IMG/VR virus record: IMGVR_UViG_2695420624_000003
Span: 1 to 27,032 of that record
Length of the DNA stretch: 27,032 bases
From: a virus
Taxonomy: Duplodnaviria > Heunggongvirae > Uroviricota > Caudoviricetes
Strand: one strand, 5' to 3'
How positions within the stretch are numbered: the stretch's first letter is position 1; each line of letters starts with the position of its first letter. Made by a program: the position numbers and the translations under genes. Under the pieces are notes generated by a model. It was given only the letters and a program-made list of their open reading frames with translations, did no database searches and was not told the DNA's origin. Below are positions 5,190 through 6,609 of the stretch, in pieces.

Positions 5190-5935
5190 TATTTAGCCCT
5201 CACCAGAAAGTTAAATGCAATATTTCGCGGTCTGACAGCAACAAAATTCACACCATCACCCACAGAGTTACTGGTGAAATTAAATCGTGAAAATCCTGGC
5301 TGATTTCCGGCGATGCCATCATGAAAGTTAATTGCGTGTCCCGCACCTTCGCCTATATTCCCGGCAAACTGAGAAAAGTTTGTAGCTGCCTGCCAGCTTA
5401 ATAATTCGCGACCACCGTCTGCACCTCGCCCGTCATCCCAGATACGAATGAAATCACCGCGGGCTTCAGGTAATACCAGCGAAGGAAACACTTTCGCCAG
5501 CACAGGATAATCAGTGGCAGAGAATTTCGCGCCGTTGAACTTCAAAAACACCATACCGGACCAGCTGTCGATGACAGAATTTGGCATTGCAGCGGAGGGC
5601 CAGAAGAACGGAACGCCAATAGCTGGAGCACCTTCTCCCAAACCAAGGTTTTCGAGAGCTGTTTTCACCGTGCCATCCGATTTGATATCGCCAAACGGAT
5701 TCTTGCGGCTTAACAGCAGCGCACGAAGCGCGGTAAGCAACTGGTCGTGCCGCGCCTTCTCCAGGCTGGCACCGGATGCCTCCACCACGCTGCAGAGTTC
5801 TTCCTGCAACATATCAAAGTAGTCATCATCCAGATCGGTGGCAGGTGTGCCGGTCTGGGGGTTACCACGAGTAAAACCGTTCTTACCCGCGCCGAACTTA
5901 TCCTTCTGCGCGGTTTTAGTGTCTATGCGATGCAT
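5189..5935 (-). CDS. Tail-fibre protein, C-terminal variable part
   Basis: 248-aa ORF ([21 protein letters not shown]...) followed by a Tfa gene; a stop codon lies immediately upstream, so no N-terminal constant fibre region is present. Confidence 0.65.
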
Positions 5936-5938
5936 GGA

Positions 5939-6427
5939 TTACTCCGGATATTTAAAAATTACGTAGGTATGCGACGGGCAGAGTTTGTTAAGCACACACT
6001 CGACAACGGTGTCGCCCCATACCACACAGCCGGGATCGACGGGCAGCAGTTCAGCCACTTCGCCAAATGCTTTCACTTTGTAGGCGTAAAAGTTTCCCCG
6101 CAGGCACAGACAGGTGACCACCAGCTCCCAGAACTCCTGCGGCGTCATATAGCCATTGGGATGCGTGGAGATCAGCTTATGCAGACGTTCGCCGGTGGCC
6201 CTCTGTTTCAGGCTGCCGTTCAGGTGATACAGATTGCAGGGCAACATCCCGACCGACTCTGCCAGCACCCTGACGCAGGAAAAAACCGCCGTCAGTCGCA
6301 TGGCCCGCTGGCTACTGATCTGCTTTCCGGTATAGGTGTCGTATGACAGCCCGATAGCATCCGCCAGCTCTGCTGGCGTGGTCACCGGCGCGTCACTTTT
6401 TCGTTGAAATAATCCCGAAAAGAACAC
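5939..6427 (-). pseudogene. Portal protein, N-terminal fragment
   Basis: 162-aa ORF in the portal position downstream of the terminase large subunit; far too short for a portal and it ends directly against the fibre gene. Confidence 0.55.
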
Positions 6428-6609
6428 TATTTACCTCCGCCGACAGACGGCTGTGTACGGTCGAGATATCGCGCCACCAGCCACGACCAGAACAGGCACA
6501 GCACCCCGGCAACAACAAAACCCGCCGGGGGATAAATCAGCCAGGCTCCATACGCCAGCAAAAGCGCACCCAGCACGCCCACCAGTGGCGCGAGAATTAT
6601 CAGAAACAT
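6427..6609 (-). CDS. Small membrane protein (60 aa)
   Basis: Hydrophobic 60-aa ORF between terminase and portal fragment, the same position as the 60-aa ymfR of prophage e14. Confidence 0.45.

Follow-up and report, generated by a model that had tools for sequence, protein, structure and literature searches.

A defective SfII/e14-family prophage whose deletion starts at a recurrent breakpoint in the portal gene

How does the beginning of a phage portal gene come to lie almost directly against a tail-fibre gene, and was the portal gene cut at a particular place? These questions are raised by a stretch of 27,032 nucleotides (nt), positions 1 to 27,032 of IMG/VR record IMGVR_UViG_2695420624_000003, which is called the window here and carries a defective prophage of Escherichia coli. 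An earlier note, made from the sequence alone, had described a portal open reading frame (ORF) of 162 amino acids (aa) with its stop codon 3 bp from the start of a fibre ORF, and had claimed that all genes between portal and fibre were missing. In this study, we mapped the window on the functional Shigella phage SfII (KC736978) and examined how often, and how exactly, related elements have been cut at the same portal position. With a probability of roughly 85%, the element is a prophage of roughly 25.7 kb of the SfII/SfI/e14 family, crippled by one conservative deletion of 13,941 bp that starts at a recurrent portal breakpoint.

The fused portal gene and the extent of the deletion

The 162-aa ORF lies at 5939-6427 on the minus strand and has a GTG start. 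Its coordinates and the Pfam search confirmed a portal ORF stopping 3 bp short of the fibre gene: the TAA stop is at 5941-5939, a 3-base gap follows (5938-5936), and the fibre ATG is at 5935-5933, with the GGAG Shine-Dalgarno sequence of the fibre gene within the final codons of the ORF before it. The Pfam profile Phage_portal (PF04860) matched aa 47-140 with E=1.6e-22 at profile positions 2-97 of 321. As the match covers the start of the profile, the ORF is a genuine portal fragment from the N-terminus. The portal part ends before the stop codon, contrary to what had been supposed. Pfam, blastn and tblastn showed that the ORF is a chimera of portal and baseplate parts. The portal-derived part (6020-6427, minus strand; portal gene nt 1-408, codons 1-136) ended in ..GTGTGGTA and aligned by blastn with SfII 2544-2951 at 96-98% identity. 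The remainder (5939-6019, minus strand), which brings its own stop, was what is left of a baseplate gene (ymfQ-like, Mu gp48-like) at its 3' end. The ymfQ gene of E. coli strain GPEC1035 ends in the identical sequence. The junction was thereby placed inside the ORF at 6020|6019 (SfII 2951/16893), 84 bp upstream of the fibre start codon, with GGTA|CC on the portal side and GCGTATA|TGGGGC on the partner side in the closest ymfQ allele, that of GPEC1035. The portal::YmfQ fusion is in frame, since nt 408 closes codon 136 and SfII 16893 opens codon 169 of SfII_22. As the final 26 codons and the stop are the native ymfQ-like 3' end in its own frame, the 3-bp gap to the fibre gene is simply the ordinary ymfQ-fibre spacing (SfII 16973/16977). 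A protein identical to the 162-aa ORF is deposited as CTU10875.1 from E. coli GCA_001284445.1, and it was found on only two contigs.

Alignment to an intact phage, which the earlier note had proposed as a check, fixed both endpoints of the deletion at SfII 2951 and 16893. The window was collinear with SfII at 95-99.9% nucleotide identity, with blastn segments at 6020-8970 (96.9%), 8971-10096 (99.9%), 10095-16512 (99.1%), 16509-20252 (98.2%) and 23975-25634 (97.8%). Only one large internal gap in phage sequence was seen, where the window passes from SfII 2951 (its position 6020) to SfII 16893 (its position 6019). The missing interval, SfII 2952-16892, measures 13,941 bp and comprises 17 whole genes and parts of two others; the portal gene lost its 3' 834 nt and SfII_22 (ymfQ/Mu-gp48-like) its first 504 nt. 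SfII_05-21, which are gone, encode the protease, major capsid protein, connectors, sheath, tube, tape-measure/tail, DNA-circulation and baseplate proteins including J, and a tblastn search with these proteins gave no match in the window. The claim that the genes from portal to fibre are missing stood for these, and had to be amended for the baseplate gene of which 81 bp are left. A complete HK97-type head and Mu-type contractile tail block was not found in the window, SfII_05-21 being absent and the portal gene and SfII_22 partial. The element would probably be unable to assemble heads, tails or virions unaided.

The position of the element in its host agrees with this kinship. The attR core (25579-25634) lies inside the tRNA-Thr gene thrW (CGT; 25589-25664, minus strand), proA occupies 25779-27032, and attL, a direct repeat of 56 nt from the 3' region of thrW, is found 66-121 bp past the left end of the window on the contig of GCA_001284445.1. 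In that E. coli genome the prophage spans about 25.7 kb, with both attachment (att) repeats present, between proA/thrW and yagP'/paoD. The thrW/proA integration site of this phage group has been described (PMC3636060), and the window showed two marks of the SfII/SfI/SfV/e14 family, collinear homology and thrW/proA integration with a duplicated att core. It shares with SfII (KC736978) and its relatives SfI and SfIV a nucleotide identity of 95-99.9%, the gene order, the thrW att core, the cohesive-end site cos and the integrase. SfII differs in being a complete myovirus that forms plaques and carries gtrABC, dam and insertion sequence (IS) elements; the window lacks SfII 2952-16892, gtrABC and dam and has instead a Pin-invertible fibre module and other cargo. 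These results show that the window element is a defective derivative of the family and not a functional member. The deletion is recent, as the genes that survive share 89-100% identity with those of a working phage, and the element would represent a clean, recent, single-step passage from a working temperate phage to a lysis-competent, particle-less resident.

Smaller differences from SfII lay outside the large gap. Tblastn with SfII proteins found neither gtrABC nor dam in the window, and no serotype-converting cassette was present, gtrA, gtrB and gtrII all being without a match there. The dam methylase gene (SfII 32076-32721) is absent at a clean joint at window 16509-16512, as is an IS911 copy (SfII 39101-40349) at window 10095-10096.

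A portal breakpoint shared by many deletions

The portal end of the deletion was familiar from other elements. In e14 of E. coli K-12, in a thrW defective prophage of strain G5 (NZ_CM127462) and in the window, alignment to SfII showed that portal homology ends at the same base, ..GTGTGGTA|CCGAAG, and that the resumption points differ, at SfII 15615 in baseplate J for e14, at 16280 in J for G5 and at 16893 in ymfQ for the window. e14, where the portal and baseplate-J pseudogenes are known as beeE and jayE, belongs to the same family and is cut at the same portal nt 408. Like the window, it has lost the head and tail-shaft genes and kept ymfR, the fibre and assembly genes and the Pin invertible segment. 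Unlike the window, it is integrated in icd, still has J' and ymfQ because its deletion stops in baseplate J, and also lacks HNH, TerS, part of TerL and the lysis genes, whereas the packaging, lysis and early genes of the window are intact. Of the features that mark the e14 type, the window has the portal truncation after nt 408; in place of the beeE-jayE junction and icd integration it has ymfQ and thrW. The G5 prophage occupies the same locus (thrW to pao), has the same portal endpoint and keeps the terminase, HNH and lysis genes and pinE. It differs in its right endpoint (SfII 16280), which leaves 120 bp of J and the whole of ymfQ, in its ymfQ alleles and in a LEM-3-like GIY-YIG cargo gene. 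The window element is an apparently strain-specific addition to a well-known kind of cryptic prophage, like e14.

A junction catalogue was built by protein search with the 162-aa ORF over NCBI, ENA and Logan assemblies, with the diverging tails mapped on SfII. Many distinct ORFs were identical as far as portal codon 136 and then diverged. The right endpoints fell in the portal gene itself, as in-frame internal deletions (SfII 3387 and 3519), in the protease gene (4030, 4090 and 4205), in the capsid gene (5076 and 5440), at 6300, 6334, 6658 and 7226, in the sheath gene (8540 and 8575), and at 11685, 13179, 15168, 15615, 15617, 16280, 16893 and 17041, the last in the fibre gene. These are 21 deletions, all with a different right endpoint, against a single inversion whose partner is SfII 13437 on the opposite strand; further junction types (L019-L021 in the catalogue) end in DNA not present in SfII. 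Junctions were also read from DNA for L011, L019-21, L025-28 and the complete genome of PEC41, and two cases with divergent alleles, L029 at 1x coverage and L030 at a contig end, gave no information. About 28-30 distinct junctions were counted at codon 136, compared with 1-3 at any other codon (aa 65-190 sampled); 26 of the distinct fusions at this codon are additional to those of e14, G5 and the window. A control search with portal aa 137-300 gave scattered breakpoints and no second pile-up. Since several right endpoints (3387-8575) lie to the left of the e14 endpoint at 15615, the junctions cannot all descend from one ancestral deletion. These results show that the portal endpoint is a nucleotide-precise recurrent breakpoint that has been used independently in about 30 deletions, including beeE-jayE of e14. 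A shared precise portal breakpoint was not described in the literature searched, which did not cover the key e14 paper, and it may have been noticed earlier.

Among 5426 complete E. coli genomes, the intact portal site was present in 1042 (~19%), the e14-type junction in 284 (~5%), the G5-type in one and the window-type in none. Left-flank pattern scans of genome, metagenome and viral contigs returned mostly e14-type junctions and one new type (L011), together with two chance 21-mer matches in a high-GC organism (L005 and L015).

The deletion might also have arisen in two steps, from an e14/G5-type ancestor with portal nt 408 joined to baseplate J, which later lost the J remnant and most of ymfQ from the old junction. 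The G5 element makes this conceivable: it is related, shares the thrW/pao locus and the portal endpoint, and is set apart from the window by a gap of just 612 bp; moreover, the hybrid junction retains the GGTA half of the hotspot and could be re-used. Against this, the window ymfQ remnant is the GPEC1035 allele, with several differences from the G5 and K-12 alleles within 81 bp. Many other junction types cannot nest in that of e14, and the same hotspot would be needed either way. We consider this second-step origin improbable. One e14-junction variant (P0012 compared with L004 11136-11145) was two bases shorter, GGTATATGCG having become GGTATGCG, perhaps because the TA slipped, or the exchange took another form, at the hybrid junction.

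A mis-join at a repeat common to two prophages could also place a portal fragment beside foreign sequence, the source genome being a draft and many drafts having contig breaks precisely at the hotspot. In this case the join is internal to a contig of 359 kb, an independent Logan assembly gives the same protein, the junction holds no repeat of k-mer length (the overlap is 2 nt), and equivalent junctions are present in finished K-12, G5 and PEC41 sequences. An assembly artefact is scarcely credible on these grounds. The contig breaks themselves are common: 135-aa 'partial' portal calls (P0032 and P0039) have 44 and 121 members, and L030 also ends at the hotspot. Such ends fit genomes that hold both an intact and a truncated copy, because the assembly graph would branch there.

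Two other records with a cut or marked portal gene were noted. In PEC41 (L031 4643-5853), a CDT-I prophage with cdtABC has this portal fragment of 408 nt, followed across the junction GGTA|TCCGGTTTG by a tail-fibre gene of lambda type; it also lacks the upstream HNH and terminase genes. The 'attR' annotated inside the portal gene of Salmonella phage 118970_sal3 was rejected as an artefact of a concatemeric record: KU927493.2 (L032/L033) is presented as a 77-kb 'complete genome', is a roughly twofold concatemer with many frameshifts, and its attL/attR in the portal gene are artefactual.

Exchange across the central TA and its possible causes

The hotspot is the palindrome GGTACC within GGCTGTGTGG-TA-CCGAAGCTT. 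It occupies SfII 2948-2953, and the breakpoint falls in window 6017-6026. When the partner sequences were examined with SfII as the parent, and GPEC1035 ymfQ for the window, TA stood directly 5' of the junction in 17 of 22 partners, compared with 3.1% TA in the region (p~6e-22). The other five had TG (four) or CA (one), each a single transition from TA. In the three TG-partner junctions that could be resolved at the DNA level (L025, L026 and L027), the product was GTGTGGTG|.. with GGTG, and because these products carry GGTG, the exchange point lies inside the dinucleotide and not after it. No base was gained or lost at any junction. Position -3 was not enriched among the partners. The half-palindromes GGTA or TACC were modestly enriched (9/17 against 24%; p = 0.009), and 14 of 25 partners had CCG to the right, at 0-3 nt from the junction, against a background of 10-16% (p~4e-6), including some whose products kept the TAACCG spacing of the partner.

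A leftward deletion was also found, and it was the only one. In L034 (IMG/VR UViG_3300014625_000019, 8640-8690), the start of the SfII_40 homologue (..ACACAC-TACCGAAG) runs into portal nt 407 onward with an 8-nt match. Either half of the hotspot can accordingly be retained, because L034 keeps the right half. Since both halves can be preserved, partner mismatches are only transitions and partners are alike on both sides, we infer an event centred on the TA. It could be a double-strand cut with a 2-nt stagger, or an exchange of the recombinase kind, with the end then joined to a second TA. On this proposal, the portal site is first broken, or its strands exchanged, in a sequence-specific manner and with a stagger across its central TA. 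A second TA, often as TA..CCG, may then receive the end; in the cases mapped on SfII such partners extend to at least 14 kb downstream. For the window, portal nt 408 was joined to codon 169 of the ymfQ-like gene across the shared TA in one conservative step.

Hotspots of illegitimate recombination, such as rolling-circle nick sites, terB fork arrest and gyrase/topoisomerase sites, have one fixed endpoint and variable partners that share a few bases. Compared with these, Ter, rolling-circle nick, gyrase, pix and cos signals were not recognisable at the portal site, and the TA exchange resembles a 2-nt staggered cut. It is possible, though we would put it somewhat short of an even chance, that GTGTGG-TA-CCGAAG is the target of a sequence-specific breakage-rejoining activity, perhaps a nuclease or recombinase that makes a 2-nt TA stagger and is of phage, host or co-resident origin, which excises the morphogenesis module repeatedly and conservatively. 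If so, the domestication of the SfII/e14 prophage family, including e14 itself, would follow from a defined molecular mechanism instead of random decay. The usual model of prophage decay is random deletion plus selection; a TA-centred conservative hotspot would channel inactivation through a specific DNA transaction. Identifying that transaction could uncover a new nuclease, recombinase or anti-prophage activity, and would also account for the origin of the K-12 genes beeE and jayE.

Candidate enzymes carried by family members are the packaging HNH protein, RusA, which cuts 5' of CC, and GIY-YIG cargo nucleases. A further suspect is the Pin invertase, which is present in the window element, e14 and G5 and might have made the deletion through quasi-pix sites. 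Serine invertases are said, after the work of Iida and Hiestand-Nauer on Cin, to exchange across a 2-bp core and to be able to use quasi-sites. The pix sites, TTCTCCCAAACC-AA-GGTTT, have an AA core, unlike GGCTGTGTGG-TA-CCGAAGC, and no half-site similarity was seen; neither partner is a true pix, and SfII has no annotated invertase gene and yet contains the portal site. A role for Pin is very improbable.

Other activities were compared with the site and rejected. Cleavage by terminase at a pseudo-cos does not fit, as cos (TGCCCGCCCC) has a 10-nt overhang, unlike the hotspot. Restriction at GGTACC was discarded because, of the 12 GGTACC sites in SfII, a single one (7222) serves as a partner. 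For type III restriction, AGACC lies 26 nt from the hotspot, but none flanks the partner sites. This EcoP1I site is on the bottom strand at SfII 2978-2982 (window about 5989-5993), and a 25/27 cut from it would leave a 2-nt stagger no more than 1 nt away from the TA, which may be coincidence. A hairpin or cruciform in single-stranded DNA at the site was dismissed with z-scores of ~0. The gyrase, Ter, Chi and relaxase/Rep nick consensus sequences, compared by eye, had no convincing match at the portal site.

Several points weigh against a repeatedly used target of a specific activity. The catalogue favours short ORFs with the first 136 aa of the query, so that leftward and portal-eroding events are under-sampled, and several junction types are singletons from short-read assemblies. 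SfII as a proxy for the parent can misassign a base; the window partner seemed to lack TA until the closer GPEC1035 allele was used. No enzyme is tied to the hotspot, Pin, cos, GGTACC and type III restriction having been tested without fit. Furthermore, the junction pattern is also compatible with replication pausing and template switching. In that case, a fork or repair synthesis would come to a halt at portal nt 407-411, and the new 3' end would anneal again at a microhomology downstream, with no nuclease or recombinase involved. This would explain the deletion bias (21 deletions with different right endpoints against one inversion) and the microhomologies of 1-10 nt that end at T407, A408 or G411; fork-arrest sites are reportedly deletion hotspots, as Bierne et al. 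found in 1991 for terB. The site itself has no stable single-stranded structure (z about 0) and no Ter-like sequence. Annealing of the portal strand also leaves unexplained the likeness retained on the right side (TA..CCG) and the survival of the partner's own version (TAACCG), position -3 is without enrichment, and the leftward event L034 exists. We regard template switching as unlikely on balance, although it is the strongest of the alternatives to a TA-centred exchange by a specific activity.

Genes and features kept by the element

Beyond the deleted block, none of the SfII genes carried by the window is truncated. In tblastn searches with SfII proteins, TerS, TerL, a membrane protein, Int, Xis, CI, Cro, CII, O, a PerC-like protein, LexA-DB, RusA, KilA-N, DUF968, Q, two cargo genes, holin, lysin, Rz, SfII_57 and HNH were found at full length with 89-100% aa identity. 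The early and regulatory region (13618-19883) contains Q, DUF968, KilA-N, RusA, LexA-DB, PerC-like, O-like, CII, Cro and CI genes, all full length. The lysis cassette (10532-11714, minus strand) consists of holin (11388-11714), lysin (10908-11384) and Rz (10532-10924), each 100% identical to SfII, and xis (24100-24534) and int (24411-25574), both on the plus strand, were full length by tblastn (24100-25574). The statement that regulatory, lysis and terminase genes are kept was borne out in this way, and the invertase, also named there, was seen by Pfam. From this gene content, the element should still be able to hold lysogeny, be induced, excise and lyse the cell.

The packaging module is likewise complete. 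The large terminase (6621-8354, minus strand; 577 aa) is full length and 98% identical to SfII, the small terminase (8351-8854, minus strand) was assigned to the P27 family by Pfam and tblastn, and the packaging-module HNH endonuclease (8971-9321, minus strand) is 100% identical to SfII. The cos site (8896-8905, minus strand) was located by a match to the 10-nt cohesive-end sequence TGCCCGCCCC, which was determined experimentally for SfI (PMC3636060). The window has all parts of the cos packaging module of this group, HNH, P27-type TerS, TerL and a 10-nt cos (PMC3636060; PMC3851460). Next to the large terminase, a ymfR-like gene for a small membrane protein of 60 aa lies at 6427-6609 on the minus strand (tblastn).

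This set of genes raises the possibility of a functional satellite that keeps cos, terminase, lysis, replication and int/xis for packaging by a co-resident SfII-like helper. No truncation was seen in the non-structural SfII genes that were compared, and all are near-identical to SfII (gtrABC and dam being absent); cos and att are intact, and intact relatives are common, the intact portal site being present in 1042 of the 5426 E. coli genomes. The length of 25.7 kb is about 62% of that of SfII, and such a shortened genome is poor for cos packaging, as is known from lambda. No capsid-resizing or helper-sensing genes were found in the element, and its non-SfII cargo ORFs had no match to satellite or helper-exploitation families. 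The junction type occurs on two contigs only, with no sign of spread, and the near-identity to SfII fits a recent deletion equally well. A satellite way of life is quite improbable for this element.

The fibre region on the other side of the junction is organised around an invertible segment. The tail-fibre gene (5189-5935, minus strand; 248 aa) has a constant N-terminal part at 5652-5935 and a variable part inside the segment (3894-5651), which is bounded by pix-type inverted repeats with core AA at 3894-3918 and 5627-5651. Its length equals that of the fibre ORF in a tail-complete prophage of strain GPEC1035, and its first 103 aa are 97% identical to the SfII fibre gene SfII_23. After the fibre ORF, Pfam identified a Caudo_TAP assembly gene, an inverted second pair of fibre tip and assembly genes, and an invertase with Resolvase and HTH_7 domains. 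These correspond to the tfa paired with the fibre tip in the invertible segment (4596-5189, minus strand), the alternative fibre tip (3859-4194, plus strand), tfa' (4196-4624, plus strand) and the Pin/Gin-type serine DNA invertase (3278-3868, minus strand). Since the fibre ORF runs across a pix-type inverted repeat, the fibre module that Pin can invert has stayed intact.

Additional cargo was observed at three places. Two large ORFs, of 373 aa (plus strand) and 432 aa (minus strand), lie at 415-2945 next to the invertase and occupy the place of oac/gtrABC in SfII; neither had a Pfam or PADLOC match. A gene for a trypsin-like serine peptidase (9397-10308, minus strand) lies between Rz and HNH and matched the candidate defence family PDC-S45 (E 6e-42). 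Its SfII counterpart, SfII_57, is a shorter ORF call with a later start, and IS911 is upstream of it in SfII and absent from the window. Finally, a two-gene cassette of 340 aa and 194 aa (12000-13614, plus strand), on the opposite strand between Q and holin, matched the candidate defence system PDC-M53 A/B and was identical to SfII_50/49.

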